Shown here: positions 11,083 through 50,989 of the stretch, one piece after another | How the letters are laid out: every line of letters starts with the position of its first letter | Position numbering within the stretch: position 1 is the stretch's first letter | Source of the DNA: a virus | Lineage: Duplodnaviria > Caudoviricetes | DNA: 60,922 nucleotides | Virus record (IMG/VR): IMGVR_UViG_3300033183_000054 | Coordinates: 1 to 60,922 of that record | Direction: 5' to 3' (one strand) | Notes under the pieces: model-generated | Database searches by the model: none | What the model saw: the letters and a program-made list of their open reading frames with translations, nothing else | What the model was told of the DNA's origin: nothing | Position numbers and translations under genes: made by a program

Positions 11083-14000
11083 ATGGTACAACAAGTAAAT
11101 ATACAAGGGGTTGGTGTAGTAAATTTCCCTGACAACATGTCACAAGAGGAAATAACTAATGCTATCGAAAATGATATATTAAAAAATGCCATACCCAGCC
11201 AACCTGTAACAGAAGACCCTATATTTAAAGTACAAGAACCTCAACCTCTACCAGCAGATGATGACTCTAGTGATTTTATTAGAGGTATTAAGTCTTACAT
11301 TCCACAACAAAAAGAACTACTTGGTGGTGCTCAAGTATTAACAGGTAAAGCATTTGGTTCAGCAGACATGATACAGTCTGGTCTTGACCGAATGGAGCGT
11401 GCACAAAAAGAACAAATCCCACTATCTAAAGAAACAGACTCGTTTACTGCCGCTTTTGAAAAAGGGCTAGGTGCTGTAATAACTGACTATATACCCTATA
11501 TAGCTGGTCAAGGCGTAGGTATGGTTAGTGAAGCTGTATTGTCTGGTGTAGTTGGTAGTATACTTGGCTCTGTAGCAGGACCTGGTGGTACAGTATCAGG
11601 CGGTGTGTCTGGTGTAGTTGCAAAAAACCTAATTAAAAAGGGTATTAAAGAACAGGCAGAAAAAGAAGCAAAAAAATCTGGTCAAGAAGCTGCTGACAAC
11701 TTTGTCAAAAAAGAAATAAATAAACAGCTTGCAGATCCTAAAATTAATAGCGAACTTAGAAAAGAAGTTAACAAAGAAATAGGTAGAAAACTAGGTTACA
11801 CACAGTTAGCAGCTAGGTATGGTGCAGGTGAAACTACAACCCGTGCAGTAGATGAAGCCATTGCAGGTATAGACAATCCAGAAGAACAACTTAAAAAAAT
11901 ACAAGAACTAAGCACAAGTAAGCTTGCAGCAATAAGTACAGCTCATGCACTAGCAGACTACGTAGGTATTAAAATTGGTCTTGGTGCGTTAGAAGGATTA
12001 GCTCCTACTACAAGAAGTATGCTACTAAATGTAGCTAGAAAGATAGGTATTACAGGTTTACAAGAAGCACCTGTTGAAGTAGTACAAAGTGCATTAGAAA
12101 GATATGGTGCAGACTTACCACTGGCAGATAAACAAGCTATGCGTGAATATGTAGACGCTGCTGCAGGCGGATTCTTTATGCCTATCATACCTGCTACTAT
12201 TGGTGGTATTAGAACTCCTAAACCTATAACAGAAGTGTCTGAACAAGAAACTAAAGAAATATTAGATACTGAAATAGAAGATAAACAACCAGAAAGTTAT
12301 AAAGAAAGTAAAGAAGAAAAAGATTCTAAAAAGAAAATAATAGAAGAAGAAAAAACTGCATCTGAGACAGCAGATGATATAATAAAATCAGAAGAAACAA
12401 TAACGGCTCCAGTAAGCACGCAACAAGAAGACATTCAAAGACAACAAGAATTATTTGACTCACAACAACAAATAATCCAACAAGAACAGGAAGTAGAAGC
12501 AGAACAGCTTGATATGTTCCCGCCTCAGATGGACTTATTTGAAGGAGAAGAAGATGCTGGAATTGACGGACGAACAGATATCAGAAGCGATGAGGTTTCT
12601 GGACAGCCCACAACAAGTGATACCCAAGAACCTGGAGAAACTAAACGACCTTCAGTGGCTAGCAGTGGAAGCACTTTTGACACAGCTTCTGGAAGAACAA
12701 TCACAAACAACACTACATTAAAACGTAATGACGTATTAAATTTTACAGACGAAGAATTAAGAAAGTCAGCAAAACTATTTGTAAACAACCCAGACAACCT
12801 ATCTATTATAGCCAGAGAACAAGCTAAAAGAAGAAATGTCAAAGAAAAACAAAAAATAGATGCTGTAGATAGAAACCAAAAGATAGACTCTTTATTAAAT
12901 AGCATACCTTCAAAAAGAGAACCAACAGATGCAGAATTAGCAGAGTACGAAAAGCGAAGAAAAGACTCTCCTAACTATACCCTTGAACAATATATTGCTG
13001 AACAAGACTTTCTAAAAGCACAAAAAGATAACCCTGGTCTTACCTTTGGTAGATTCTTACAAGACTACTCAAGCCCTACACCGCCTGTAATTACAAAAAG
13101 AACAGAATATGACCAGTATGGTAATCCTATTGAGTTTGAAAGTACTGACCCAGAAGCTAACTTAAAAGTTACAGATAATGCAATAATAAAAACTACTCCT
13201 AATTCTGTATTTGATAGTAATCTAAAACCAAAAGTAACTAAGTATCAAACAGATAACAATTTACAAGACTCCCATGTAATCAAAGAAAATGTAGATACAG
13301 AAGGTAACGTAGAAAGTTTTAGTTTAGTACCTAGAGATACTGTAAAAGACACTTCAGTAGGTTCAGTAGCAGAGTATTTTGCAAATAACTGGATAAAAAC
13401 AAAAGAAGCTTGGAGCACAGGCAAACTAAATAAAAAAGGTGAGCCTATATCTAGGAGAGAAGATAAAGTACCAACGCCAATAGAAGTTAGAAAGTTTTTA
13501 AAAGATAATTTAAATAAAGAACAGTTTGAAGATATAAGAAAACAAAAAAAGTTATTTGAAAAAATAGGTATAGCATCTCAAAAACTATTATATAAACGCA
13601 CTGCAGGTTTAGAAGGTATTAGAGAAGCAAGAAAAATAAGGGAGCAAGAATACGATAATATAGCTAGAGAGCAAGGCGGTATGCAGCCTCTGAATGCCCT
13701 GTTCACGGATACATTTGAAAAGACAGGAGCTATAGAAGAAGATGTTCCATCACCTTATGAAAGAACTAAAGATTTTGTTAAAGCTAGAATAGAAGCAATA
13801 AAAGACTGGGCATTTGAAGCAGCCGAGGATGAGTATGCTTTGAAAAGCAAAAAAGAAATAAACAAAGCTATAACTAAGTTAGCAAAAGAAAGAGGGTATG
13901 AAGAAGGGGAGTTTTCAATCAATGATCCATTAGAATTTATAGACCAAGAAGAATATAACACCATAATTAACGAAGCCCCTAATGTAAAAGATAAGATAAG

Positions 14001-17000
14001 ACTAGATAAGTTTAACGATAAGAAAAAAGTACGAGATAAGTTTGCAGAAACATTTAACGCTAGAGAAAAAGCTGTAGCAGAAAAAATGAAAAACATATTT
14101 GCCGGTGCAGTTAGAGCTTCGACTAAATACAAAGCTTCTCAAAAAGTTATTGGTAAGACAGTCACAGATCAAAGAAAAGAAAATGCTCAGTTAAAAAGAA
14201 TAGAAAAAGAACAAGAAGCCGCTAAACAAAGAAAACGTGGTGCACGCATGGGCGAGACTAAAATATTAACGCCTACTCAATTACAAGCTTTAGAAAATAA
14301 AAATACAACTGATGCAAATAATGACGTGATGGAAGCTATAAAATCAGGTAAGTCTATAGCAGAAATTTTAAAAGTCATAGCAGGCAAAAAAGCAGCAAAA
14401 CTTAACTCTACTCAAACAGTTGCTAATATGCTAGCTAAAGTTATATCTAAAATACCAGGATATAACACTAAAATAAAATTAGGTGTAGTTAGAGGCGATA
14501 GGTTTGCACACTTTGATCCACGAACAAACACTATTGTTATAAACAAGAGAATAGAATTTAGTGCTCCTTCTGGTAGGGTAGAATCGCTGGGCAGGATAGT
14601 AGTACACGAAGTTATGCACTCTATGATGGACCACATTATTGACAATAGAAGTGTACTACCACTAAGTCTACAAAAAGAATTAGACACACTAGAAAAACAA
14701 TATGAATATGTATCTCAAACTTTAAATCCAGTTACGCTAGAACTGTTCGGTATAGATTCATTCAAAGAGTTTGTTGCTGAGATGTTTGCTAGTGAAGAAG
14801 TGCAAAAATTAGTTGGTACTCTAGGTAGGTCTAGAAAAGAAAGAGAGTCTGCATTATTTAAGAAAACATACGGTGATGGAAAAGTTTCAGGTTTCTTAAA
14901 AGATATGGCTAACTTCATACTTAAAACTATAAGAACACTTGGAGGGTTTACTCCAGGAATCACTGCGGCAACTACACTTCAATCTATTGAAAACATAATT
15001 ACATCAAAAGAATATGTACCAGCTAGCGAAACATTACAAGGTAAGGGTATATCCTTTGCTCCTAAAAAAGCTAAAGACATAGGAGACTCTACTCCTCAAA
15101 AAATAAGAGAGACAAACAGAGCAGCTGCAAAAGATTATGAATATAGATCGTGGTTTGGTAATGCTTTCAATACATTCAAAGACTTGTTTGCAAGCGGTGA
15201 AAAGTCAATGACTAACTTAATTAGACGCTTCCAAAACGATAGAATAATATTGAAAAAAATACAGGACGTAGCAAGCAACGCAGGAATATTAACTAGAAGT
15301 GGTAAGTATTTTAACAATATATACGACCAAGTAACTTTAGCTTTAGGTAGAGCGGATAAAATTTTAAGAGAAACTGTAAAGGGTCCTATAGATGATTTTA
15401 CTGAAGCTTTTTCAAGTTATTTAAAATACACTAAACAAAACGAAAGAGATGCGGTAGGAGACTTACAATCATGGCTCACAGCATTTCATGAAGCAGAACG
15501 ACGCCTTGTTAAATTTTTAAGATTTGTTCCTCTAAGTACAAAAGACAATATAACTCTAAGTTCAGGTAGACAAACGAGCGCTGCTCAACTGAGAAGAGAT
15601 ATATTTAAAATACTTACAACTAATAGAAATTTAACAAAACAACAGATTAAGAAATACAGAGACTTACTACAGTCTTTAGCAGATAACTATGCAGATACAA
15701 ATGGACAAAGCTTTAGAGCAGAGGATAGATATAAGTCTATTGATATGAATGACATTGAGTATAGTGTTGTGGGTAAAGGTAAAGGCGAAGGTCCTCTAAC
15801 AGTCACTGAAAGAGATGCTTTAATAGAAGAGTATAACAACCTTCCTGAAGAACAAAAAGCAATCATAGATAAAATAAGAAAGGCTATGAAAGTTATTCAA
15901 GAACAAACCAAAGAATTAAACTTTAAAGCTAACTACATGCCTGTACAAGCTAAAAATATGATTGAATTCTATGGATGGGAAAACTATATACCATTAAAAG
16001 GAAAAACTGAAATAAAAGGAGAGAACGAAGAGTTTCTTGATATTCAAGGCAAGAGATTATCAGGTGATTTAAGAAGAATGGAAAGCACATTTGAAAAAGG
16101 TGCAGAGCAAGCACAAGACCCGTTTGTACAAGTGTTAGTAGATGCAACTGTTGCAGGAGCAAGAGCAGGTAGAAAAGGTCTAACTCAGTCTATAAAAAAT
16201 GCTATAAACACTGATGTATCATACGTAGATGAAAAAGGTAATAAAGTTAAGAAAAGATTAATAGATGGTGAAATAAAAACATATTCTTTTGACGAAAGGT
16301 TTTTAGATGAAATAAAAGAGGATATGAATGACAAGAAAAAGATACTTCACTTTAATGAAGACGGTTCTGTCGATGTAATAAAATTAAAAGACGACGCAGT
16401 ATTAGAAGCAGTTCGTAGAACATATAGAGACTCTCATCCTTTGCTAGATTTAGCCAATGGAGTTACAGGATTATTAGGACAACTACATACTAGATTCAAT
16501 CCTGCTTTCCCAGTATTAAACTTTGTTCGTGATGCATTAACTAACGCTTATGTTATTGCTGCCGAGATAGGACCACGAAGTAGTTTTGATTACCTAACAC
16601 TTGTAGCAGAACAAGTAGTAAAAGGTGGTATGAAAGATACAGCTACAATAGCAAACCTATATAACCAAAACGGTATAGATGGTATAAGAAGGTATGCTAA
16701 AGAACAAGCTAGAAAAGGTAATACTTATCCTCAGTCAGTTATAGAATACCTTGATGAAGGGGGTAACATCGCCTATGTTCAAGGTTTATCTGTTGCAGGA
16801 ACTATGCATACTCTTTCTTCTAAACTAAATAAAAATAAAATATTACAGTCAACAGAAGGCATAACTAAATTCTTTGATAGTGTCATGCTTACTTTTGAAT
16901 TAGCATCTCGTGTTGCAGGTTATCGTGTATATAAACAAGATTTTATGACTGCAAATAAAAATAAAATAATTAACAAAGCCCAGTTAGAAAAAGCAGCTAG

Positions 17001-18291
17001 AGAAGCAGCAGCTGCATATGCTAAAAACTTTGCAAACTTTGAACAAACCGGTGAATATGGTAGAGCGTTAGGTGCATGGTTTATGTTCTTTAGACCGGCA
17101 GCTACCGGTGCAGTTAGAGCTTTAGAAGGTATAGGTCCAGGTTTAAGACGATGGCAAAACGTAGAAGCTCAACTACCAGACTATGTTAGAAACGACCCAC
17201 AAAAACTAGCTCAAACTAAAGCTAACTTTGAAAAAAGACAAAAGGCATCTAGAGCTGTTATATTCTCGTCCGTAGGTATGGGGCTTACCGTATACTACTT
17301 AGCTGCAGCATTATCAGGTGACGACGATGATAATAATAACAAAACGTTTGGTGATGACATGAGACGTTGGACTCGTTACGCTAGGTTTGCAATACCAGGC
17401 ACAGACACTGTATTACAGATACCTTGGGGTTTTGGTAACGGCGGACTTGCCGCATTTGGTGCTCAAATAGCAGGGTTAGCTTCAGGGAAAGAAAACCCAC
17501 CAAGAGAAGTTATAGGTAATATGATTGAGATACTTATGGATTCTTACTTACCTCTTCCTATATCACGTATCAATCCTTTAGAATCACCTGGACACGCAAC
17601 TGCATTTTTAACAGATTCGTTTGTACCTTCAGTTGCAAGACCTTTGTTTGAATATGCTATGAATATGAATGCGTTTGGACAACAGATATATAATACAAGA
17701 AGGTCTAGAGTGGGTGATGCTTATACTGGAGGAGATAACATACCAGATATGTATAAAGACGGAGCTATACTATTAAGTGAGATGACAGACGGATACTTAA
17801 GTTGGAGCCCTAACACCATGTACTTCTTTGCCAACAACCTTGCAGACGGCTGGACACGTATTATGCAAAACACTTACGGACTAGGACTAACATTAGCAGG
17901 ACAAAAAGATTTTGATCCAAAAAGAGACCTACAAATATTTGACAGCTTCTTATCTAAATACTCTAAAGCAGACCAACGGGCTTATGGTAGAGTAAGAAAC
18001 ATTGTAGAGGCAAAACAAAAACGATTAGATGCTAATAAAAATAACCCAGAAGTATATGATCGTTATGTAAATAATAATCCATTAGATCCTATTATAGTAG
18101 AAACGTTTAATACTATAGAAGCTAAAAGGATTAATCCAGCAAGAGCCGATGTAAATGAAATAAGACGTATGCCAGGACTTACACCTAAAGAAAGAAGTGA
18201 TTTGTTAGAACCTAGGAAAGAGGTATTAGATGCATACACTAAAGGTCTTACTGCAGAAATAGAAGTTATGCTAGAAATAGCTGAGGAATAA
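11083..18291 (+). CDS. Giant internal virion polyvalent protein with zincin metallopeptidase motif and LPD38-like C-terminus
   Basis: 2402 aa; VVHEVMHS (HExxH) with downstream EFVAE; C-terminal hydrophobic helices and QIPWGFG; last gene of the virion arm. Confidence 0.75.
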   Translation: MVQQVNIQGVGVVNFPDNMSQEEITNAIENDILKNAIPSQPVTEDPIFKVQEPQPLPADDDSSDFIRGIKSYIPQQKELLGGAQVLTGKAFGSADMIQSGLDRMERAQKEQIPLSKETDSFTAAFEKGLGAVITDYIPYIAGQGVGMVSEAVLSGVVGSILGSVAGPGGTVSGGVSGVVAKNLIKKGIKEQAEKEAKKSGQEAADNFVKKEINKQLADPKINSELRKEVNKEIGRKLGYTQLAARYGAGETTTRAVDEAIAGIDNPEEQLKKIQELSTSKLAAISTAHALADYVGIKIGLGALEGLAPTTRSMLLNVARKIGITGLQEAPVEVVQSALERYGADLPLADKQAMREYVDAAAGGFFMPIIPATIGGIRTPKPITEVSEQETKEILDTEIEDKQPESYKESKEEKDSKKKIIEEEKTASETADDIIKSEETITAPVSTQQEDIQRQQELFDSQQQIIQQEQEVEAEQLDMFPPQMDLFEGEEDAGIDGRTDIRSDEVSGQPTTSDTQEPGETKRPSVASSGSTFDTASGRTITNNTTLKRNDVLNFTDEELRKSAKLFVNNPDNLSIIAREQAKRRNVKEKQKIDAVDRNQKIDSLLNSIPSKREPTDAELAEYEKRRKDSPNYTLEQYIAEQDFLKAQKDNPGLTFGRFLQDYSSPTPPVITKRTEYDQYGNPIEFESTDPEANLKVTDNAIIKTTPNSVFDSNLKPKVTKYQTDNNLQDSHVIKENVDTEGNVESFSLVPRDTVKDTSVGSVAEYFANNWIKTKEAWSTGKLNKKGEPISRREDKVPTPIEVRKFLKDNLNKEQFEDIRKQKKLFEKIGIASQKLLYKRTAGLEGIREARKIREQEYDNIAREQGGMQPLNALFTDTFEKTGAIEEDVPSPYERTKDFVKARIEAIKDWAFEAAEDEYALKSKKEINKAITKLAKERGYEEGEFSINDPLEFIDQEEYNTIINEAPNVKDKIRLDKFNDKKKVRDKFAETFNAREKAVAEKMKNIFAGAVRASTKYKASQKVIGKTVTDQRKENAQLKRIEKEQEAAKQRKRGARMGETKILTPTQLQALENKNTTDANNDVMEAIKSGKSIAEILKVIAGKKAAKLNSTQTVANMLAKVISKIPGYNTKIKLGVVRGDRFAHFDPRTNTIVINKRIEFSAPSGRVESLGRIVVHEVMHSMMDHIIDNRSVLPLSLQKELDTLEKQYEYVSQTLNPVTLELFGIDSFKEFVAEMFASEEVQKLVGTLGRSRKERESALFKKTYGDGKVSGFLKDMANFILKTIRTLGGFTPGITAATTLQSIENIITSKEYVPASETLQGKGISFAPKKAKDIGDSTPQKIRETNRAAAKDYEYRSWFGNAFNTFKDLFASGEKSMTNLIRRFQNDRIILKKIQDVASNAGILTRSGKYFNNIYDQVTLALGRADKILRETVKGPIDDFTEAFSSYLKYTKQNERDAVGDLQSWLTAFHEAERRLVKFLRFVPLSTKDNITLSSGRQTSAAQLRRDIFKILTTNRNLTKQQIKKYRDLLQSLADNYADTNGQSFRAEDRYKSIDMNDIEYSVVGKGKGEGPLTVTERDALIEEYNNLPEEQKAIIDKIRKAMKVIQEQTKELNFKANYMPVQAKNMIEFYGWENYIPLKGKTEIKGENEEFLDIQGKRLSGDLRRMESTFEKGAEQAQDPFVQVLVDATVAGARAGRKGLTQSIKNAINTDVSYVDEKGNKVKKRLIDGEIKTYSFDERFLDEIKEDMNDKKKILHFNEDGSVDVIKLKDDAVLEAVRRTYRDSHPLLDLANGVTGLLGQLHTRFNPAFPVLNFVRDALTNAYVIAAEIGPRSSFDYLTLVAEQVVKGGMKDTATIANLYNQNGIDGIRRYAKEQARKGNTYPQSVIEYLDEGGNIAYVQGLSVAGTMHTLSSKLNKNKILQSTEGITKFFDSVMLTFELASRVAGYRVYKQDFMTANKNKIINKAQLEKAAREAAAAYAKNFANFEQTGEYGRALGAWFMFFRPAATGAVRALEGIGPGLRRWQNVEAQLPDYVRNDPQKLAQTKANFEKRQKASRAVIFSSVGMGLTVYYLAAALSGDDDDNNNKTFGDDMRRWTRYARFAIPGTDTVLQIPWGFGNGGLAAFGAQIAGLASGKENPPREVIGNMIEILMDSYLPLPISRINPLESPGHATAFLTDSFVPSVARPLFEYAMNMNAFGQQIYNTRRSRVGDAYTGGDNIPDMYKDGAILLSEMTDGYLSWSPNTMYFFANNLADGWTRIMQNTYGLGLTLAGQKDFDPKRDLQIFDSFLSKYSKADQRAYGRVRNIVEAKQKRLDANKNNPEVYDRYVNNNPLDPIIVETFNTIEAKRINPARADVNEIRRMPGLTPKERSDLLEPRKEVLDAYTKGLTAEIEVMLEIAEE

Positions 18292-22641: not shown

Positions 22642-23046
22642 TTAAGACTTGGTAGGTTTTCGTACTACAACTTTGAATTCTCGCATACTACTTATACCCG
22701 GTGGCAAGCCTTCATCGTCTCGGTTGGTTAAAAATTCTTTAAAGTTAGACTGGTGTAGTCTTTGTTGTAATAGTTCAATTGCTTGGTTCTCCATAACAAA
22801 CTTTTTAAAGTTATCCCAGTCTCCACAAACGTAGTTCTCTCTTGTGGTTTTAATTATAGTGCCATTACCAGTACGGATACTGTCGGCATTTATTTCATTA
22901 CATGAATTTAGTAATACTTGTTCTAACTGAGCTAAGTCGTTTGCCAATTCTCTATCTTTCGCATCATGTTCTCTAGACAATCTATCACGTTCATCTCTTA
23001 TAGTCAAATAAGTTTTTACTAATTCATCAAGGTTAACATCACTCAT
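22642..23046 (-). CDS. Hypothetical replication-module protein
   Basis: Coiled-coil N-term; DWDNFKKFV and LPPG motifs. Confidence 0.65.
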   Translation of the reverse strand: MSDVNLDELVKTYLTIRDERDRLSREHDAKDRELANDLAQLEQVLLNSCNEINADSIRTGNGTIIKTTRENYVCGDWDNFKKFVMENQAIELLQQRLHQSNFKEFLTNRDDEGLPPGISSMREFKVVVRKPTKS

Positions 23047-33645: not shown

Positions 33646-33896
33646 TACTCATTCCCTTCTATACATTCTTTGTCTGTCTTGATATAAACAGTGCTGACTG
33701 GGTCAGCCTGTTCATACACCGTGTTGTTTTTACATAGATAAGTTATCGGTTCGTCGTATAAGAAACTCATATACATTAGATACCCTCTGTATCCCGACAT
33801 ACCAACAACCACACCCAACGCAAACCAAAACAACAATATAAAATAGTATGCGTATTCTCTTTCTATAATTACTTTGTGTCCTCTAACATTACTCAT
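33645..33896 (-). CDS. Small membrane protein
   Basis: One TM helix and a C-terminal Cys pair; GGAGG RBS. Confidence 0.65.
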   Translation of the reverse strand: MSNVRGHKVIIEREYAYYFILLFWFALGVVVGMSGYRGYLMYMSFLYDEPITYLCKNNTVYEQADPVSTVYIKTDKECIEGNE

Positions 33897-34048
33897 GACG
33901 AGACCTCCTCTGCTTGAAAGTCAGCATCCCAAACTTGCCACTCAGTTTCTTCTTGAGCCTTTCGGATTGCTTGTTCTTCTGTTTGTGCAAACACTGTAAT
34001 AGGTTTGCAATACTGCGTTATACTAACTCTATATACTTTACTATTCAT
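33893..34048 (-). CDS. 51-aa protein (not in ORF track)
   Basis: MNSKVYRVSITQYCKPITVFAQTEEQAIRKAQEE...; GAGGAG RBS; ATGA overlap with the next gene. Confidence 0.7.
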   Translation of the reverse strand: MNSKVYRVSITQYCKPITVFAQTEEQAIRKAQEETEWQVWDADFQAEEVSS

Positions 34049-34062
34049 CTTCTTCTCCTCTG

Positions 34063-35262
34063 TTAGTGGGAATTCCCACGGTTATACTTCACAATCTTGC
34101 CTGTCGGAACACGCAAGTCCTCGTTCTCTGTTACTAGCCACAGTGTTGGATAAGATATATTCCACTCAAGGTTATCTGTGCCATAGAAGTTACCATCAGT
34201 AAATACAATCAAACCCTGTGCGTTGATGTTGTTATCGTTGATATACTTAGGAATACATTGTGGGTCAGTGCCACCACCACCTTTTGGCTTGACCTGATTC
34301 TGTATGTCTGTATAGTCATCAGCAAACTCTTGGATACCATGCACTTCTGTATCCCACCATAGCAGTTTAATTTTTTCAGGATTAGCGACCTCACAGATTG
34401 AAACCAGTTCTGACGTGAACTCAGTAAGTTCTCGTGTGCCGATAGAGCCTGATGTGTCAATGGCAACAACAAGTTCACCCACTCTCTCATTCTCAGTGAT
34501 TGGTAAGTATATGTCGTTGACCATGTGTCGCTTGTTGAACCTACGCCAAGAGTATTCGTCTGTTCCTCGTGTTACTGACATAATGAATTCTCTCAACACA
34601 GTTCGCCAGTCGACCTTCGGTGCTAGTAAGTCCTCAATCGTTCTAGGAATCTTAGCACCAAGTCTGCCAGCCAATACTGAACCCTCACGCAGTGCCTTGT
34701 CGATACTGTCGGATAGTTCATTAGATTGTTTCTCAGACATTGTCTGACCATGTTCAAAGTCGTGTTCGTCCATAGTATTGCCATTACCATCGCCATACTT
34801 TTGTTCAAACTCTTGTGGTCTGTTTTGTCGCATATCTTTCAAGTCGTTGTATACCTCACGCACCGACCAGTTGTGATACTTGTCATCGACCAGTCCACCC
34901 TCAGGTAGTCTAAGAAACCCATGCTCTTTGATGTTCACAATTACATCGTTGACAACATAATCTGCTGACATGTTGACCAGTTGGGGGTCGTCCTTAAACT
35001 CACGCTTGAACCTAGCGACGTGCTTGAGAGCGACGTGTAAGTTCTCGTGAAGAACCAATGCTCGTAGTTCTTCGTCTTTAAGTTTAGATACAAACGACCG
35101 ACCATACTTCTTATTCACACCATCGGTGTATGCCGTAATATTCTCATCAATGATTTCGCTTTTACCCATCATCATTACACCTGAATACAAAGCAGTCTCG
35201 TGATGTTTCATCAAAGCTATATGAGCTTTCTTCAGTCTTGTTTCTTCTGTTATTCTATTCAT
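34063..35262 (-). CDS. DUF2201-type metallopeptidase-vWA protein
   Basis: TAYTDG, LHENLH (HExxH), IDTSGS MIDAS, GGGGT and FTDG; AGGAG RBS before MNRIT. Confidence 0.9.
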   Translation of the reverse strand: MNRITEETRLKKAHIALMKHHETALYSGVMMMGKSEIIDENITAYTDGVNKKYGRSFVSKLKDEELRALVLHENLHVALKHVARFKREFKDDPQLVNMSADYVVNDVIVNIKEHGFLRLPEGGLVDDKYHNWSVREVYNDLKDMRQNRPQEFEQKYGDGNGNTMDEHDFEHGQTMSEKQSNELSDSIDKALREGSVLAGRLGAKIPRTIEDLLAPKVDWRTVLREFIMSVTRGTDEYSWRRFNKRHMVNDIYLPITENERVGELVVAIDTSGSIGTRELTEFTSELVSICEVANPEKIKLLWWDTEVHGIQEFADDYTDIQNQVKPKGGGGTDPQCIPKYINDNNINAQGLIVFTDGNFYGTDNLEWNISYPTLWLVTENEDLRVPTGKIVKYNRGNSH

Positions 35263-35272
35263 TGATAGTCTC

Positions 35273-36328
35273 CTAGAATAAGTCAAAGTTTTCTTCGCAC
35301 CACTTAGCAATCTGTTTGTTACCTCGTGCTATGTCTCGTGCTTTCTTAGATTTAACCATCATGGTAAAGAACACGGCTTGCATCTCACTGCTTGGTAGTC
35401 TGTTTACAAACTTCATGAAGTCAGATAACTCGTCCTGTGTCTTGAGTATGTCCACAGCTTGGAACATAATCATAAGTTGTGCTGATATTTCAGATGGTAT
35501 AGCTATCTTGTCAGGGTTATCTAAGATGTCTTGGAACTTAGGTAATTTTTTCTCTAGCGATAAGAACGCTGACATATCCGACGATGCACTCGTGCCGATA
35601 GTGCCTGACAATGCTGACATTGTAGCCTTATCTCCTAGTGTGTCTCTGTTAGAAACAATGACGGAAGACTTAGCCAATGAGCGTGGCGAGACAAAACTCA
35701 GTTGATGTTTCTTCGGATTGAAGATGTAGGGGTTGTCCTCTTGGTTATCATCTAAGTAACTTGCTAGTGAACGAGGAAACATGTGAACCCATGCTCTGAT
35801 AAGCGGATGTATGTCGTTATCAGTTGCCCATATTAGCCAGTCATCTACTTGTGGTTTTTCCATTTGCAAGATACAAACCCTGTTACCCGCATGGGCTAGC
35901 ATAGTGTCGCCTACTCCGTCGGATTGGTTGTTCGATGTGCCAAACACAATAGAACCTTCAGGCAGTGGTGTATCACCTACGCATCTCTCTAGCATTAGCC
36001 TTGTAAAGATAACTTGTAGTAGCTTAGGGGATTTCATAAACTCGTCGAGCAATATAACTTTTGGTTTATCACTTTCTAGTTTGAATATAGAACCCACGTA
36101 GCTTTCCAATGTTTTAGTATCATGGTTAGGAATAGTCATAGCTATGTCTGACATATCTTTCACTGGGCAGTCAACATAGATGTAGTCGTATTTGTCGCCC
36201 AAGTCTTCCTCTAGCATGTGAAGTAATGATGTCTTACCACACCCAGGCTCGGATTGTATGATTGGTGTAATCTCTTTACCGATAGTTGGGATAAGTGTTC
36301 GTAGTTCTTTAATTGTTACTGTGTGCAT
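35273..36328 (-). CDS. MoxR-type AAA+ ATPase
   Basis: SEPGCGKT Walker A; LLDE Walker B; NR and SPRS motifs; next to the vWA gene. Confidence 0.9.
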   Translation of the reverse strand: MHTVTIKELRTLIPTIGKEITPIIQSEPGCGKTSLLHMLEEDLGDKYDYIYVDCPVKDMSDIAMTIPNHDTKTLESYVGSIFKLESDKPKVILLDEFMKSPKLLQVIFTRLMLERCVGDTPLPEGSIVFGTSNNQSDGVGDTMLAHAGNRVCILQMEKPQVDDWLIWATDNDIHPLIRAWVHMFPRSLASYLDDNQEDNPYIFNPKKHQLSFVSPRSLAKSSVIVSNRDTLGDKATMSALSGTIGTSASSDMSAFLSLEKKLPKFQDILDNPDKIAIPSEISAQLMIMFQAVDILKTQDELSDFMKFVNRLPSSEMQAVFFTMMVKSKKARDIARGNKQIAKWCEENFDLF

Positions 36329-36361
36329 TATGCTCTCCTTTATGTGTGGGAAATCCCACGA

Positions 36362-37273
36362 TTAGAATTGAAATTTAGAAAGTATGTCTTCTACGTCGTT
36401 CTTAACACGCTCTCTTGTGCTATCACTTACTCGTAGCTTTTCACTGTCAACACCTTGTAGGGTATCGTCTAATTGATTCGCTACTGACCTAAGTCTTGTG
36501 CTATGTTCATCATCAGTTAGTTGGAAGTTCCTGATTGTTTCGCATAACTCTTTTGCTTTCTCGATGGTGCTATCATAGATTTTGCGTTTCTTAGTTGTGG
36601 TCTTGCCGTCTTTTGTAACCTCTTGCGTTCCACAACAGTGTGCGATGCTTTCCATGACATTCGTGATTCGTTCTGTTTGTTGATGTAATACATTCTTAAC
36701 TATCTCCTCAGCTTGTTTTTGGTATTGTAGTTTCAAGTCGCTCGCCAAGTCTTGTGCTACTTGACAACGAAAGTCTTGCTCAGGCACTTCAGAAACATAC
36801 AGGTTACATGCAAACTTACTTCTGACTTCGTCAACACTTGGGTAATCATCTGCGTTATACATATCACCCTGACTGAAAGCCATGTTTGATTTAATAGTGT
36901 CATACCTATCACAGAAATCATCTAGTAGTCTGTAAAACTCTGTCTGATGTTCGTCATACTCAGATTTGAATTTCTCTAAGTTGATTGTAGGTAATAAGTC
37001 TTGACTGACGTTCCATCGGTATGTGTTGCGTTTAGCCCAGTTGTAAATGGTCTGTCGATAGTTCACCAAGTCTTTGTGATAGATGTTGTTAGCTAATAGA
37101 TTTTTAACAAACCTACCTGCGTTACTGTCTGCTCGTTTAAGTTTGGTTACCTCTGATGAGATACCTCTGTCTTGTTTTGTTGCTGACCAAACATTTACGT
37201 CTACTGATACCAATACTGCTGATGTGGCTAGTGATGTAATATGTTTAGGTTGTTGTAGTTCGACGTAGTGCAT
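36362..37273 (-). CDS. DUF3150-like protein
   Basis: Helical 303 aa with DDYP...VRSKF; usual position upstream of phage AAA/vWA pairs. Confidence 0.65.
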   Translation of the reverse strand: MHYVELQQPKHITSLATSAVLVSVDVNVWSATKQDRGISSEVTKLKRADSNAGRFVKNLLANNIYHKDLVNYRQTIYNWAKRNTYRWNVSQDLLPTINLEKFKSEYDEHQTEFYRLLDDFCDRYDTIKSNMAFSQGDMYNADDYPSVDEVRSKFACNLYVSEVPEQDFRCQVAQDLASDLKLQYQKQAEEIVKNVLHQQTERITNVMESIAHCCGTQEVTKDGKTTTKKRKIYDSTIEKAKELCETIRNFQLTDDEHSTRLRSVANQLDDTLQGVDSEKLRVSDSTRERVKNDVEDILSKFQF

Positions 37274-37360
37274 GTCGTTCTCCTATAAAGTTAATATGTA
37301 TCGTGGGAAATCCCACGCTCTCTGTTGCTACTTAACGCTAGTGTTGCTACGCATGGTTTA

Positions 37361-38407: not shown

Positions 38408-38668
38408 CTAGTCCCCCCACTCGTCGTTGTTATCAAATATTTCTACGCATTTCTCTGCTAGTTGTTTATCACTCATCTCGTTAATTGCATGGACGCCATT
38501 AATATTAAGTTCGACTATCTCAGCAATCAATTCGTCCCCACTGTATGTATTAGATAACTTGTCTACTATGTCGTCTAAGATTTTCTCTATCATCATGTCC
38601 CTAGAATAGTTTGACATTACCTCTAGCTTTTTGTAATGCGTGTTTGAAGTTTCTAAGCTACTACTCAT
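38408..38668 (-). CDS. Hypothetical acidic protein, paralogue of 38169-38405
   Basis: Same shared pattern; GAGG RBS. Confidence 0.65.
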   Translation of the reverse strand: MSSSLETSNTHYKKLEVMSNYSRDMMIEKILDDIVDKLSNTYSGDELIAEIVELNINGVHAINEMSDKQLAEKCVEIFDNNDEWGD

Positions 38669-38868
38669 AGCCCACCTCGCATTAGATAAGTTAGCATACC
38701 GACTGATAAGAACATTAGAATAACTAAGATAACAAACACAACCGACAATATCGTATCAAGTTTGCGTTGTCTAATTAGTTCTCTGCGTTCCAATAATGGA
38801 TAATCAGGTATTGATTGGTGATACTTTTCCCAGTATTTCTCCATTTGTTCCAAGTCTTTTTTGTGCAT
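38665..38868 (-). CDS. Small membrane protein, first gene of an early operon
   Basis: TTAACTTTATAGGAG leader; C-terminal TM helix. Confidence 0.7.
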   Translation of the reverse strand: MHKKDLEQMEKYWEKYHQSIPDYPLLERRELIRQRKLDTILSVVFVILVILMFLSVGMLTYLMRGGL

Positions 38869-38970
38869 CTCGTTCTCCTATAAAGTTAATAATTTGTAAA
38901 AATTATCGTGGGAAATCCCACGGTCTGGATAGAGCAAAACAAAATGAAACCATGTAAAACCAAACATATA

Positions 38971-39023: not shown

Positions 39024-39112
39024 TGTGAGTTGAAGTATTTTTGTTGGATTAAGTTGAGTTGAATTGTGGTCTCCACTCTTAGTTTACGAATGGCTGAAAC
39101 TTCGTGATGTTG

Positions 39113-39497
39113 TAAGTGCTTGATTTTACAGGCTTGTTCCAGTTGTTCCAGTCTAAAACCTCGCTATAACTTTACTATAGGAACAGTGGAACAAAATTGG
39201 AACACGGCTAAGTGCTTGATTTTACTAGGTTTTATATAGATATATATTATATTATTTTAATAATAATTAGTTTGTTCCAGTTGTTCCAGTGAAAACAGGA
39301 CGGTGTTTTTTGTAGTTGTTTAGTTTTGCACTGCGAAATCAAACCTCTTGATGACTAAATCTCTCAAAACCATATACATAGTGTCCCAAGACTGGAACAT
39401 TGGAACAAAGTTAGCTAAGTCCTTGACTTCGTTGACAAAAACCTGTTCCAAGCCCCCCTTCGTAGACTGGAACAAAACCCCGTTTTGCATGGAACAA
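39113..39497. repeat. Putative replication origin: GGAACA/TGTTCC iterons, IHF sites, AT-rich core
   Basis: About 12 GGAACA/TGTTCC copies in both orientations; AATCAAGCACTTA (IHF consensus WATCAANNNNTTR) on the - strand at 39113-39125 and 39209-39221; nearly pure A/T at 39230-39269. Confidence 0.65.
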
Positions 39498-39718
39498 CAT
39501 GATTTTCTAGCAAATTCAAACTTAAAAAAGCATCGCTAAATTATATCTCTAGCGATAGCATGGTTCTCACCTCGTAGCGTGGGAAATCCCACGCAAACTT
39601 TACAAACGGCGTCAGCGACGTCGACGACACATAACTGGTATCAGTTAAGAATTAATTTAGCGTCGTAGACTGCGATAGCGACCTCGTCGTATCTAACTGG
39701 TTTCAAGAATTTAGGGCG

Positions 39719-39761: not shown

Positions 39762-40469
39762 TTATGAGTTAAGAACTTTGTCAAGTTCGTTGATTAAGGT
39801 TTCAACCTTTTCTGCCTTTTGAGCATTAAGCTTGTCACCGTTTTTGATACCATTGCGGTATAGTTTGACAAAACTTGCGAAGCCTTTAACCATACGAGCA
39901 TTGAAGGGTAAGACTTCAACGCTTGAGCCAGACTCTGTATTATCTTTCGCATACAAAGACTTGACTGCGTTTTTAAGATCACGAAACTTGTCACGCTTGT
40001 AATCTTGTGCTGATTCACGCCATGCCTTGTAGAATTCCTTCTTAGCAGGACCGATTGGATCAGCGTTCTCACCCTTAGTCGCAGACAAGGATTGATACTC
40101 ACCCTTTGGCATAGCCCACGCCAAGCGTGATTCTAAGACCATGTCGGGCTTGTCATCGCTAGGAACTAACTGCTTACCAGCAACGATCTTGACGGGTATT
40201 TTCTCACCCTTCTCACGCTCCCAGTTTTCAAAGAACGCAGTCGTTGTTTGATCTTTGACTTCGTTTGCCATGTTAGCAAAGCCGTCATCAATCACGGCGT
40301 TAGCGTCCTTAGTCAGCTTAGACTTTGCGACCTTGTCTATTAGCTTTTTATCAGCGTATTTAAGAACGATACCAAGATACATAGAAGCACCTTGTTTTAC
40401 CATACTTGAGCCCTTACAAACTAAACCTACAGACTCATTAATTAAAGTTTTTGTATTTAAGTTTGACAT
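39762..40469 (-). CDS. Monocistronic early protein of unknown function
   Basis: 235 aa; own promoter, TAACTTTATAAGGAG leader and terminator. Confidence 0.85.
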   Translation of the reverse strand: MSNLNTKTLINESVGLVCKGSSMVKQGASMYLGIVLKYADKKLIDKVAKSKLTKDANAVIDDGFANMANEVKDQTTTAFFENWEREKGEKIPVKIVAGKQLVPSDDKPDMVLESRLAWAMPKGEYQSLSATKGENADPIGPAKKEFYKAWRESAQDYKRDKFRDLKNAVKSLYAKDNTESGSSVEVLPFNARMVKGFASFVKLYRNGIKNGDKLNAQKAEKVETLINELDKVLNS

Positions 40470-40528
40470 AATGTCACTCCTTATAAAGTTAGTAAAATAT
40501 GAACGGCAGAATTACCGAACATGAGTCA

Positions 40529-40557
40529 TTTATATAATTAGTTATATGCTAAGTCAA
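40529..40557 (-). promoter_or_regulatory. Sigma70-type promoter
   Basis: TTGACT-17 bp-TATAAA upstream of 40469. Confidence 0.55.
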
Positions 40558-40653
40558 ATAAGTAGGGCTTAGCGTGGGAATTCCCACGCATCGAACTCGA
40601 CCAAACCGACAAAATCGACCTCGACGGAGTCGACGACACATAACTGGTATCAA

Positions 40654-40669
40654 GGGAGCCGAAGCTCCC
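40654..40669 (-). terminator. UUCG-capped hairpin (terminator or stabiliser)
   Basis: GGGAGC-TTCG-GCTCCC on the - strand right after the 40675 stop; only a short T tail. Confidence 0.6.
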
Positions 40670-40674
40670 AAGAC

Positions 40675-40818
40675 TTACTCCCATAGTAAAAAGAAATAGA
40701 TACCGAGATTAACCATCGCGACACCTACGAACATAATGGCAAGGGGGTTCATTGCGAACCCCAGTAACGTTGCCACTAATCCACACATACATGCAATCAA
40801 TGCGAATATCTCTTTCAT
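40675..40818 (-). CDS. 47-aa two-TM membrane protein (not in ORF track)
   Basis: MKEIFALIACMCGLVATLLGFAMNPLAIMFVGVAMVNLGIYFFLLWE; TAATG coupling and GAGGAG upstream. Confidence 0.7.
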   Translation of the reverse strand: MKEIFALIACMCGLVATLLGFAMNPLAIMFVGVAMVNLGIYFFLLWE

Positions 40819-41045
40819 TATTTATACTCCTCGATGTAAGTTTCAAGTTGTTGCTTAACGTTCTCAGCTACGAGAGCGTAAACCTTTGGGTCTATAATAT
40901 CTACAGTTGTAGAGTTGTCCCCATTCTCTGCGTAATGTTTGATAGCCCTATGTGCTTCGTTCATTAATGCAGTGATTACAAACGTGCTACCTAATACTTC
41001 ATAGTTAACAATGTTACTAACTATGTCTGTTACTTTCTTACTCAT
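40818..41045 (-). CDS. Hypothetical early protein
   Basis: TTAACTTTATAAGGAG leader; 75 aa. Confidence 0.75.
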   Translation of the reverse strand: MSKKVTDIVSNIVNYEVLGSTFVITALMNEAHRAIKHYAENGDNSTTVDIIDPKVYALVAENVKQQLETYIEEYK

Positions 41046-41099
41046 ACTAAACTCCTTATAAAGTTAATAAACACATCACAATATGTAATGCATGAATCC

Positions 41100-41128
41100 T
41101 TTTTACTATAACCGAATACCTATGTCAA
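41100..41128 (-). promoter_or_regulatory. Sigma70-type promoter
   Basis: TTGACA-17 bp-TAAAAA upstream of 41045. Confidence 0.55.
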
Positions 41129-41287
41129 ATAACCTACCCCTCCCCCACCAACCACATTACAACAGATGGGACCCACGCTACGCTACGCACTAAGATTTAC
41201 ACAAATTACCAGACAAAAATTGAAATACTAGACCCCCCACCCCCCTTACTTTACAAACACCCCCCGTCAAGGGGACCCAAAAAGATG

Positions 41288-41315
41288 TTGCAAAATAAAA
41301 TATTAGGCATATAAT
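41288..41315 (+). promoter_or_regulatory. Sigma70 promoter of the predicted sRNA
   Basis: TTGCAA-16 bp-TATAAT. Confidence 0.7.
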
Positions 41316-41321
41316 GAAATT

Positions 41322-41421
41322 AGGTCAGTGAGGGTTCCTTACTTACTCTCTCCTCTCGATCCTTACTGATTCCTATAAAGTTAGTAACACCAGCCCGGTT
41401 TCTTTCGCCGGGCTTTTTATT
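41322..41421 (+). ncRNA. Predicted ~95-nt small RNA
   Basis: Promoter; 14-bp stem 41323-41336/41358-41371 that needs G.U pairs and so forms only on +; CU-rich loop; linker; terminator; no ATG. Confidence 0.7.
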
Positions 41422-41422
41422 T
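41392..41422 (+). terminator. Rho-independent terminator
   Basis: AGCCCGG-loop-CCGGGCT then TTTTATTT. Confidence 0.85.
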
Positions 41423-41555
41423 GAGATTGAGTCGCATTTCTGTTTTTATTTTTTTAATCTGTATGATGCAGGTATGAAAACTATATTTAAATACTTAGAT
41501 GAGATTGCGGCGCTCGGTTTGAGCTTGACGTTCTACGTGATCTGGCTATACTTAC

Positions 41556-41900
41556 TTATAACTCTTTAGGGTCGAACCCATATAAGGACGCTATATGTTT
41601 GATGATGAGTTTAAAACGTTTGTTGTCATGGCTGTCGTAGTCTTCATTTTTTTCCTTATACACAGCTAAGTGAGCCATCTCATGTAAGAGTGTCTTACAG
41701 ATTGTGTCGAAGTGACCATTCTTAGCGCTACTTATATAGATCGTATCTTCATCGGGTGCAAACTCACCCATAATATCTTTGCGTCTTGTAACCTTGAATC
41801 TAAGCTGACCAGGATGAGGCATATTTATCTTATCGAATGGTGGCATTTTGACGAAGGTCTTATATAAGAGTTTAAGGTTTTCGTCGGTTAATATAGTCAC
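41556..41900 (-). CDS. SprT-like zinc metalloprotease
   Basis: TLLHEMAHL (HExxH) with downstream H...F; GTG start. Confidence 0.8.
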   Translation of the reverse strand: MTILTDENLKLLYKTFVKMPPFDKINMPHPGQLRFKVTRRKDIMGEFAPDEDTIYISSAKNGHFDTICKTLLHEMAHLAVYKEKNEDYDSHDNKRFKLIIKHIASLYGFDPKEL

Positions 41901-41958
41901 GAACGAGACCTACCTAAAGACCATAGGTTAACTGGACCAAACTCTGTATCTTTCCATT

Positions 41959-42159
41959 CTATAGACATGTTGTTGGATATGCTGGAGTAAACCCTTCAGG
42001 TAAAAATAAATAGCCTTGCATGATGCAAGCGGTTGACCACTGTGGGTAATCAGGTCTGAGGCACTCATCGAAGTATTGATGAGCATGGGCGCAGGATTCG
42101 AAGTTACCTATGTAATGTCGATCGTTATCTACATACAGATATAAAACCCACTCAAACAT
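41959..42159 (-). CDS. Hypothetical Cys-containing protein
   Basis: Start refined to MFEWVLYL; the longer track ORF overlaps the terminase small-subunit candidate. Confidence 0.5.
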   Translation of the reverse strand: MFEWVLYLYVDNDRHYIGNFESCAHAHQYFDECLRPDYPQWSTACIMQGYLFLPEGFTPAYPTTCL

Positions 42160-42238
42160 CTCTTTATTATACTCTTTTTTAAATATTATGTTACAATTCG
42201 ATTTATTAGCTGCAATTTCAAGGTGTAAACAGCGACAC

Positions 42239-42805
42239 ATGACAGAAAACAAAGAGCCATTAGTACCCCCAGTAGAAGAAAATATACCTTTACCTAAAGG
42301 GGCTAGAGATGCTTTACCTGAATTAACTCCAAAAGAAGAACTATTAGCTAGAAGTAAAACAATAAAGCTGATTGCGGATATCAATGGAGAAACTATTGAG
42401 CCAACTAAGGATCAAGTTGATGATGCTACTAAGATGGCTGAAGAAATGATGGAGAATAGGGACTTAAAACACGAGTTTGCTAACTATCCTAACGAAACTA
42501 TAGCGTTTTTGACAGGTTTGGTTGAGTCAACTAGCCATATGGTAGTAAAAGACCTAGCAGATATTAAGTTATCAGTGCTAAATGGGCTATTACAAGAGGC
42601 AGCAACGGCTAAATCGGCTCGTGAACGTATCTCAGCATGGTCTAGAATAGGCGAAATAGACGGAGTTGATGCATTTAAAAAGAAAACTGAGGTTACACAT
42701 GTCACTAAATCAGGTAAAGAACTCGAAGAAGAGCTGAAAAAGACCATTGAGGAGCTAAAAGGTAAGGTAGTTGAAGGTGAAGTGATAGAAGACGACGATG
42801 ATTAG
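42239..42805 (+). CDS. Putative terminase small subunit
   Basis: Helical protein overlapping the terL start; called mainly on position. Confidence 0.65.
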   Translation: MTENKEPLVPPVEENIPLPKGARDALPELTPKEELLARSKTIKLIADINGETIEPTKDQVDDATKMAEEMMENRDLKHEFANYPNETIAFLTGLVESTSHMVVKDLADIKLSVLNGLLQEAATAKSARERISAWSRIGEIDGVDAFKKKTEVTHVTKSGKELEEELKKTIEELKGKVVEGEVIEDDDD

Positions 42806-44324: not shown

Positions 44325-44442
44325 AATATTAAACAGATTGTGGAAGATTGTGTGGTGGGTAAAAACACTTACACTTATTATATATTATCTTCTCATAATA
44401 CAAATTAAAAAATTATTAGGAACTTACAATGGCAGCGAATGA
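44314..44442 (+). CDS. 42-aa hydrophobic peptide between terL and portal
   Basis: MLYKILNRLWKIVWWVKTLTLIIYYLLIIQIKKLLG...; overlaps both neighbours. Confidence 0.4.
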   Translation: MLYKILNRLWKIVWWVKTLTLIIYYLLIIQIKKLLGTYNGSE

Positions 44443-50966: not shown

Positions 50967-50989
50967 TAACTTTGTATGGAGACATTATA

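Follow-up and report, generated by a model that had tools for sequence, protein, structure and literature searches.

What does the non-coding stretch at positions 41288-41422 of the virus record IMGVR_UViG_3300033183_000054 (Duplodnaviria; Caudoviricetes) do, and is it a gene at all? The window analysed here is the whole viral record of 60,922 nucleotides (nt), which is estimated to be 97% complete. A first-pass annotation, made from the sequence of the window alone, had described the stretch as a self-contained non-coding unit that produces a small RNA (sRNA) from the + strand and could silence several early operons and possibly host messenger RNAs (mRNAs). The first part of this description stands, in that the parts of the unit recur in diverged alleles without a conserved open reading frame (ORF); the silencing is retained as a proposal. 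The comparisons and folding calculations described below indicate that the unit is probably a real sRNA gene. Its product is read here, with a probability of roughly 0.42, as a trans-acting antisense RNA that would repress translation of four early genes by a logic like that of the c4 RNA of phages P1 and P7.

The promoter, the pyrimidine loop, the 17-nt segment and the terminator named by the annotation are all present in the sequence and in the predicted fold (Table 1). The promoter matches the consensus at 10 of 12 positions in a promoter scan, and the 5' end of the predicted RNA would lie near 41322, judging by the position of the -10 hexamer only. The loop of the 5' hairpin (41337-41357) is 21 nt long, pyrimidine-rich and contains CUCCU. 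A stem of 14 base pairs (bp) with G.U pairs, forming on the + strand only, had been described; the preference for the + strand and the G.U pairs are confirmed, but the stem is longer, at 16 pairs. The + strand RNA 41320-41425 folds with -31.7 kcal/mol (z-score -4.22, none of 200 shuffled sequences being as good), compared to -24.0 kcal/mol (z-score -1.20, 25 of 200 shuffles as good) for the - strand of the same region. The minimum-energy fold and the centroid are one and the same terminator-containing structure, whose stem bases are also paired in the ensemble. The seed is exposed, with unpaired probabilities of about 0.5-0.99 at 41376-41391. The unit has no ATG and overlaps no called - strand gene, and its GTG frame is lost in one of the relatives described below (L066). 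With its stable hairpin at the 5' end, an accessible A/U-rich stretch and a U-tailed terminator hairpin, the RNA would have the build of a base-pairing regulator. The comparison with Rfam that the annotation had suggested produced no family: none reaches the gathering score anywhere in the window, and at E-values up to 10 the region 41050-41600 gives sub-threshold matches only, mostly to unrelated terminator-bearing sRNAs.

The seed connects the unit with the early genes. Six matches to the 17-mer 41371-41387 with up to three mismatches occur in the window, all on the + strand, where 0.47 are expected; a count of six was reached by none of 100 shuffles. They are located at 38876 (one mismatch), 37281 (two), 40479 (two), 41054 (three), in the unit itself and at 21074 (two mismatches, inside a coding region). 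The exact string TAACTTTATA is found seven times, always on the - strand: in four leaders, in the unit and at two sites within the primase/helicase gene. The annotation had placed the repeats over the ribosome-binding sites of four - strand genes, and the sites at 38876, 37281, 40479 and 41054 do indeed each lie directly upstream of an ATG. On the - strand these leaders read TTA(C/T)TAACTTTATA(A)GGAG, followed by 6-7 nt and the ATG, and the corresponding part of the early mRNAs is UUAxUAACUUUAUA(A)GGAG. All four contain UUAACUUUAA, which one source gives as the epsilon enhancer of T7 gene 10 (PMC9590205). The match to the second leader is exact over 14 of 14 positions in the window and over 17 of 17 in genome G001. 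A weaker match in a late leader at 50967-50980, also mentioned in the annotation, is real and has one mismatch.

The target sites are 0.3-4 kb from the unit and on the opposite strand. Each target gene had been thought to head an early transcription unit; promoter-like sites precede three of the four, one of them being TTGGTA-16-TATAAT about 125 nt upstream of the third leader, but none was found for 36362-37273. Pfam gives no match above the cut-offs for any of the four gene products (75, 235, 67 and 303 amino acid residues, aa), and PHROGs, run on the 235- and 303-aa proteins only, gives none for these two.

With the four leaders the seed forms predicted duplexes of 16-23 bp and -19.8 to -22.5 kcal/mol. 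The annotation had expected these leaders to rank top among phage and candidate-host 5' untranslated regions; among the start regions of the window, the calculations put them at or near the top. When the seed alone is paired with the window's 78 start regions, the best four energies, -19.3 to -20.9, belong to the four leaders, with the next region at -16.0 and the median at -8.6. Cofolding of the whole RNA with the same 78 regions, which takes the RNA's own intramolecular structure into account, ranks them 1, 2, 3 and 5, with free-energy differences (ddG) of -18.2 to -16.7 against a median of -5.8. The hairpin and the terminator stay closed in the cofold for three of the four. Duplex energies of the whole body calculated without intramolecular structure carried no information, since any start region rich in purines can pair with the CU-rich loop; they were replaced by the seed-only and cofold values. 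Two further matches, one of 11 nt complementary to the portal gene and one of 10 nt between the loop and the start region of 22642-23046, were set aside, as a rough k-mer estimate puts both close to chance.

Table 1. Features of the unit, its predicted targets and its surroundings; duplex energies in kcal/mol
Feature	Position	Strand	Remarks
Sigma-70-type promoter, TTGCAA (41288-41293), 16 nt, TATAAT (41310-41315)	41288-41315	+	read from the sequence
5' two-tier hairpin, 16 pairs (4 outer and 12 inner, 2-nt bulge)	41321-41375	+	three pairs are G.U/U.G
Exposed seed	41371-41391	+	UCCUAUAAAGUUAGUAA (41371-41387), antisense to the enhancer and Shine-Dalgarno part of early leaders
Intrinsic terminator, stem 41392-41399 with 41407-41414, then U-tract	41392-41422	+	T-run on the + side only
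Predicted target 1, leader of 75-aa early gene 40818-41045	41054-41070	-	duplex -22.5; cofold rank 3 of 78
Predicted target 2, leader of 235-aa early gene 39762-40469	40479-40495	-	duplex -21.3; cofold rank 5 of 78
Predicted target 3, leader of 67-aa gene 38665-38868	38876-38892	-	duplex -20.5; cofold rank 2 of 78
Predicted target 4, leader of 303-aa gene 36362-37273	37281-37297	-	duplex -19.8; cofold rank 1 of 78
75-aa gene	40818-41045	-	flanks the unit on one side
C-rich box (G-rich on the - strand)	41186-41270		directly upstream of the unit; kept in relatives with and without the unit
Conserved block GAnTGATTCnCnTTTCTG	41423-41442	+	after the terminator; directly after the C-rich box in unit-less relatives
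31-aa hydrophobic small ORF	41474-41569	+	downstream neighbour, not within the RNA
SprT-like gene, 114 aa	41556-41900		Pfam PF10263; flanks the unit on the other side

In the proposed mechanism, host RNA polymerase would transcribe a + strand RNA of about 95-100 nt from the near-consensus sigma-70-type promoter, and transcription would end at the unit's own intrinsic terminator. Because the promoter is of the host sigma-70 type, like the nearby early - strand promoters, the RNA would be expected from the start of infection and would accumulate during its early phase. It would pair with about 16-23 nt of each leader, covering positions from about -27 to -8 and including the GGA of the Shine-Dalgarno sequence. 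This region of a leader is where base-pairing RNAs block the entry of ribosomes. Pairing would occlude the ribosome-binding site, and the four early genes would be turned down together. The outcome would be negative feedback or an early shut-off timer, that is, a co-ordinate and delayed repression. Transcription of the unit, stability of the RNA, its pairing with the leaders in vivo, their repression and a possible chaperone requirement are all predicted here from sequence. If the mechanism is true, one small RNA closes several early genes through the enhancer and Shine-Dalgarno sequence that they have in common, and constitutes an RNA-only timer of the early-to-middle switch.

Related loci help in judging whether the unit is a gene. 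Those examined comprise 29 viral loci reached through the SprT-like gene, six viral and 16 metagenome loci reached through the pattern of C-rich box (C-box) and promoter, and three reached through the terminator pattern; one of the 16 metagenome loci (L062) is an unrelated GC-rich match. The 75-aa neighbour gene as a query found no related viral loci, and a degenerate terminator pattern found no locus beyond one already in the set. The order of the elements, in the orientation of the window, is conserved: a C-box, an optional unit, the block GAnTGATTCnCnTTTCTG, and a cassette of one to three genes on the + strand, convergent with the SprT-like gene. The cassette here consists of the 31-aa ORF only; elsewhere it contains a 66-aa gene, a 206-aa gene or others. 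The contigs of 25 of the 29 viral loci with the SprT-like gene end at most 2.2 kb downstream of that gene, and it seems that the variable cassette or the G/C homopolymer box breaks assemblies.

Four types of unit can be distinguished. Type A is found in the window, in the near-identical L010 type and in L066, with cut copies in L064 and L065, and type B has four forms, B1-B4. Type C is present in L018/L071, L072 and L073. Type D (L008, L009 and L016) is positioned after the 206-aa gene, behind the consensus promoter TTGACA-16-TATAAT. A covariance model of type B found type D and recovers type A (E-values of about 2e-4 to 5e-4) and type C (about 0.004-0.01); it detects no second copy of the unit in the window. 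The contigs of the runs X2 and X4 carry a near-identical unit; those of X1, a run tentatively taken as RNA, cover 40738-41134 but do not reach the unit. At its 5' end the type B RNA is identical over 12-14 nt, in the same sense, to an early part of the portal gene (codons ~15-19; G002 44025, G004 6329, L024 4258), which may be chance or a trace of recombination.

In the unit-less loci L003, L013, L015, L020 and L023 the C-box runs directly into the conserved block, and in L005 and L006 a cassette gene comes directly after the C-box. One metagenome contig equals the window as far as 41419 and does not resemble it beyond that point, which marks a putative module boundary at the terminator. Because of the C-box/block junctions and the divergence at 41419, the unit is regarded as a discrete insert. 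In L073 (223-390) the type C unit follows, in place of the C-box, a small ORF that resembles a PIN/VapC-type protein by eye. The context in L073 is a different one, and therefore the unit appears to move between contexts.

The build of the unit is constant across its types. Each allele that is seen whole has a -35/-10 pair at a spacing of 16-17 nt, a body of 48-74 nt with a pyrimidine content of 57-66%, and a terminator whose T-run is on the + strand only. The hexamers and their spacing are kept in types A and B1-B4 while the sequence of the spacer diverges, and the type C promoter is TTGCAC-17-TATAGT. The basal pair of the terminator switches between types A and B, being G-C in one and C-G in the other, with the stem retained. 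The bodies always fold into one or two hairpins with CU-rich sequence on display; in types A-C a stretch of 12-25 unpaired nt comes next. All five full units that were folded have z-scores between -2.6 and -5.1, and the full unit is more stable on the + strand than on the - strand in 11 of 12 sequences, the exception being B3. In L066 two pairs of the type A stem have changed on both sides (U-A to A-U and A-U to G-C) and the stem is kept, with two cells unpaired; none of the 17 seed positions has changed, compared to several in the hairpin, and the seed is identical in L053 too. In L025 and L069 the apical pair of the type B inner stem is U-A instead of A-U. Among the unit loci compared, no ORF on either strand is common to the alleles. 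Coding on the - strand of the unit was considered and rejected, as the frames differ between alleles. Thus the unit has, on sequence, the marks of a trans-encoded sRNA: its own promoter, a U-tailed terminator, no conserved frame, and an accessible seed complementary to distant start regions.

The agreement between seed and leaders was compared across genomes for types A, B1-B4 and C; the type D contigs stop short of the early genes. With seed A, the four type A genomes give -17.3 to -24.5 and the nine others -5.6 to -15.9. For seeds B3 and B4 the best and second-best matches are at -19.8 to -28.4 on the three B3/B4 genomes, where the leaders read TCTTTTAACTAT(A)T(A)(A)GGAG, and at -4.7 to -20.4 elsewhere. 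On their own genomes, none of 300 shuffled seeds is as good as seeds A, B2, B3 and B4. The covariation between seed and leaders that the annotation had hoped to find in relatives is thus present for A, B3 and B4, is reduced for B2 to a better score than shuffles, and fails for B1 and C. In other words, covariation of the predicted seed with its predicted leaders is seen in two independent dialects and is absent in two alleles.

Several observations weigh against a trans-acting repressor of the phage's own early genes. Complementarity to their own leaders is at chance for B1 (97-146 of 300 shuffles as good) and for C (33-64 of 300), and the family therefore persists even where no extended match to the leaders exists; it may have a different core function. 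The B2 seed is no better on its own genome than on others, and its score may reflect anti-Shine-Dalgarno content in general. In allele A, seed and leader dialect occur together partly through shared descent, the carriers being close relatives. The seed is a direct repeat of the leaders and lies on the same strand as they do; it could have arisen by duplication of a leader, and possibly recently. About half of the relatives that cover the junction have no unit there, and the unit is thus dispensable. A single promoter match is not above chance, there being 18 promoter-like sites between 36000 and 43000 compared to 20.4 expected. Counts of paired changes, which were made for each type separately since MAFFT aligns types A and B poorly, and which are based on only 3-5 distinct sequences per type, are not significant: type A has two double-sided pairs (49 of 500 shuffles as high) and type B has one (199 of 500). 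No run on record as RNA contains the region, and the RNA library X6 matched nothing; neither result bears on expression.

The RNA could instead be real but have its main targets elsewhere, either among host mRNAs or by binding or sponging a host or phage RNA-binding factor, with the 17-nt match being a by-product of the origin of allele A. This is the least unlikely of the alternatives. All alleles, including B1, C and D, keep UUCCUU or CUCC in loops or single strands of their pyrimidine-rich bodies. The CU-rich display is the only feature common to all of them, and the absence of a match in B1 and C agrees with this account. Known phage sRNAs often target host genes: PreS acts on host dnaN (bioRxiv 10.1101/2024.10.31.621285), and DicF and AgvB are described as acting on host genes as well (PMC12197685). 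However, seeds A, B3 and B4 are specific to the leader dialects of their own genomes, beyond the Shine-Dalgarno part. Furthermore, host mRNA targets are conjectural, and the data point to no particular protein partner. If the RNA nevertheless acts on the host or on a protein, the unit still represents a new and recurrent family of phage non-coding RNAs.

Every allele is situated directly upstream of a + strand gene and is read in the same direction. The unit might thus serve the cassette gene behind it, which is the 31-aa ORF in the window and a 66-aa gene in relatives, as a 5' leader controlled by premature termination or attenuation, with the short RNA as a by-product or a cis regulator. Premature termination commonly gives rise to short RNAs of the 5' untranslated region (5'-UTR) in virulent Pseudomonas phages, where 29 such candidates have been reported (PMC10914365). 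A mini-ORF of type B (AAGG, 5 nt, ATG) is kept with a synonymous change in L019 and L024, but it is missing from type A and different in L025. The unit-less relatives retain the block, the -10-like hexamer and the downstream gene, and therefore the cassette appears to be independent of the unit's promoter. The downstream gene also varies (31 aa, 66 aa, 197 aa, a secreted 66-aa protein) while the build of the unit is constant. No alternative antiterminator pairing is present in the minimum-energy fold or the centroid, although no dedicated search for ligand- or ribosome-dependent folds was made. A cis-acting leader is on balance improbable.

It is less probable still that the unit is non-functional, a relic - strand module of hairpin and leader from a lost early gene that came to lie beside a terminator and a chance + strand promoter-like site. 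On the - strand a hairpin stands before each of the leaders at 40479, 38876 and 37281, and the unit reads alike on that strand, with a hairpin and then TTACTAACTTTATAGGA, but no ORF after it. A relic would explain the repeat on the same strand and would be in keeping with promoter-like sites that are not enriched and a unit that many relatives lack. Nevertheless, the -35/-10 hexamers, their spacing and their position are kept despite diverged spacers and bodies, and the U-tract of the terminator is on the + strand only in every allele. The hairpin is retained through two-sided changes, the seed is constant where the adjoining hairpin has changed, and the alleles have no - strand ORF in common. 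The first-pass annotation had itself named a relic leader as the alternative; the kept promoter, terminator and hairpin weaken it as an account of the unit, and it may still describe how the seed originated. Finally, a type I toxin-antitoxin-like pair of the RNA with the 31-aa ORF, a conserved peptide with a hydrophobic C-terminal half located 52 nt downstream of the terminator, is hardly credible, as other genes adjoin the unit in most relatives and the start region of the ORF is not complementary to the RNA (cofold ddG -1.7, seed duplex -4.0).

The surroundings of the unit are those of a phage with separate early and late blocks. Early and replication genes, including a primase/helicase, a helicase and a DNA polymerase, occupy the - strand from 18476 to about 42160, and late genes run on the + strand from 42188, with TerL at 42798 and the portal gene at 44429. 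The annotation had placed the unit at the early/late junction. This is not the case, because the junction is at about 42160-42190 and the unit lies about 0.8 kb within the - strand block, in a small + strand island. A megablast search with 40500-42500 found no close relative among named phages. In a protein search TerL is about 50% identical to its nearest named phages, a few pelagiphages and uncultured phages. No match to an integrase or resolvase was found in the record with PF00589 and PF00239. A 2402-aa protein (11083-18291, + strand) has a 'large polyvalent protein' domain (PF18857) near its C-terminus, and the Pfam scan gave no RNA-polymerase family for it.

The C-box, with G-runs on the - strand (...GGGGGGTGGGGGGTCTAG...), is present in nearly all relatives and is better conserved than the unit itself. 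It was considered as a replication origin, and this was set aside once iteron-like repeats had been found elsewhere: in the region 39100-39500, viewed on the - strand, TGGAACA/TGTTCCA is repeated many times, partly in tandem (with two copies of ACTGGAACAACTGGAACAA), and an AT-rich run lies next to the repeats at about 39230-39290. These repeats look like iterons, and the region could be a replication origin. The block after the terminator presumably belongs to a promoter or operator by which the downstream + strand gene is controlled separately. The 31-aa ORF is probably a real small membrane protein. It overlaps the end of the SprT-like gene by 14 nt and has TATGAT followed by 6 nt before its ATG; it differs at two residues in L003 and, by an alignment read by eye, mostly by synonymous changes in L026.

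Several genes start exactly 6 nt past a -10-like hexamer: TATAAT-AAAGAG-ATG, TATGAT-GCAGGT-ATG, TATAGT-TGGCGT-ATG and TATAAT-GAATGA-ATG (in the window at 42159-42194 on the - strand and 41462-41476 on the + strand; also in L003 and L018/L071). This spacing suggests leaderless mRNAs. A palindrome, CGTGGGA(A/T)(A/T)TCCCACG, is positioned just upstream of several - strand middle genes, at 33893-34100, 36328-36345, 37302-37317, 38907-38922 and 39575-39592, and the relatives G002 and G003 have a different palindrome, CCTGACAnnnTGTCAGG, at equivalent places. Its appearance suggests an operator, a processing site or a promoter hairpin that is specific to the genome.

The trans-acting antisense RNA proposed here can be extended to the whole allele series. 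The alleles and the matching leader dialects would then form an RNA-based specificity system of a virulent marine/estuarine lineage, which would shut off the phage's own early genes on schedule and block a later phage of the same dialect; this extension is doubtful. Neighbouring genes with leaderless-looking starts would escape the block. If such a system exists, it is the RNA counterpart, in a non-temperate phage, of both the shut-off by T4 RegA/RegB and the heteroimmunity of P1/P7 c4. Should the pairing itself be real, the allele series and its dialects also provide natural compensatory variants for studying the co-evolution of an RNA and its targets. To our knowledge, the regulatory RNAs of virulent and uncultured phages are almost unexplored, and the phage antisense RNAs that we know of come from a few temperate model phages and mostly have single-gene targets.

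Keyword searches of the open-access literature found no description of such a circuit, and the unit may, as far as these searches go, be a variant of phage antisense RNAs that has not been described before. The closest likeness is to c4 of the temperate phages P1 and P7, an RNA that is encoded in the operon of its target and processed from their common transcript, and that controls a single antirepressor operon. Like c4, the unit would produce a phage-encoded RNA that is not antisense in cis, and whose short exposed stretches pair with sites elsewhere in the phage, including ribosome-binding sites. According to a review, c4 RNA blocks translation through such exposed stretches, and differences between the alleles of related phages result in heteroimmunity (PMC12197685). 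Unlike c4, the unit has its own promoter and terminator, is on the strand opposite to all four predicted targets, which are separate genes, and belongs to a phage with no integrase match. No homology to c4 is apparent either from Rfam at the gathering score in the window or among the sub-threshold matches in 41050-41600, which are to other sRNAs.

The OOP RNA of phage lambda and the sar RNA of phage P22 are short phage antisense RNAs with their own promoters and terminators; both are antisense in cis and overlap a single target, and sar covers a ribosome-binding site. The unit has in common with them the promoter, the terminator and the proposed antisense pairing, whereas its four predicted targets are 0.3-4 kb away and do not overlap it. 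Bacterial sRNAs of the Hfq type have a 5' hairpin, an exposed C/U-rich anti-Shine-Dalgarno seed and a Rho-independent terminator with a U-tail, and act on several mRNAs. The predicted RNA has the same build, but it is encoded by a phage and its predicted targets are the phage's own genes. The 5'-UTR non-coding RNAs of virulent Pseudomonas phages have a promoter and an early terminator upstream of a gene and are conserved within a genus, and the available part of the source proposes no trans targets for them (PMC10914365). In the present case, the downstream gene seems to be separately controlled, and the RNA has a specific anti-leader seed. In phage T4, RegA, a translational repressor protein, and RegB, an endoribonuclease, shut down many early mRNAs at their ribosome-binding sites. 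The logic proposed for the unit is the same, with the difference that the effectors of T4 are proteins and the effector here would be an RNA.

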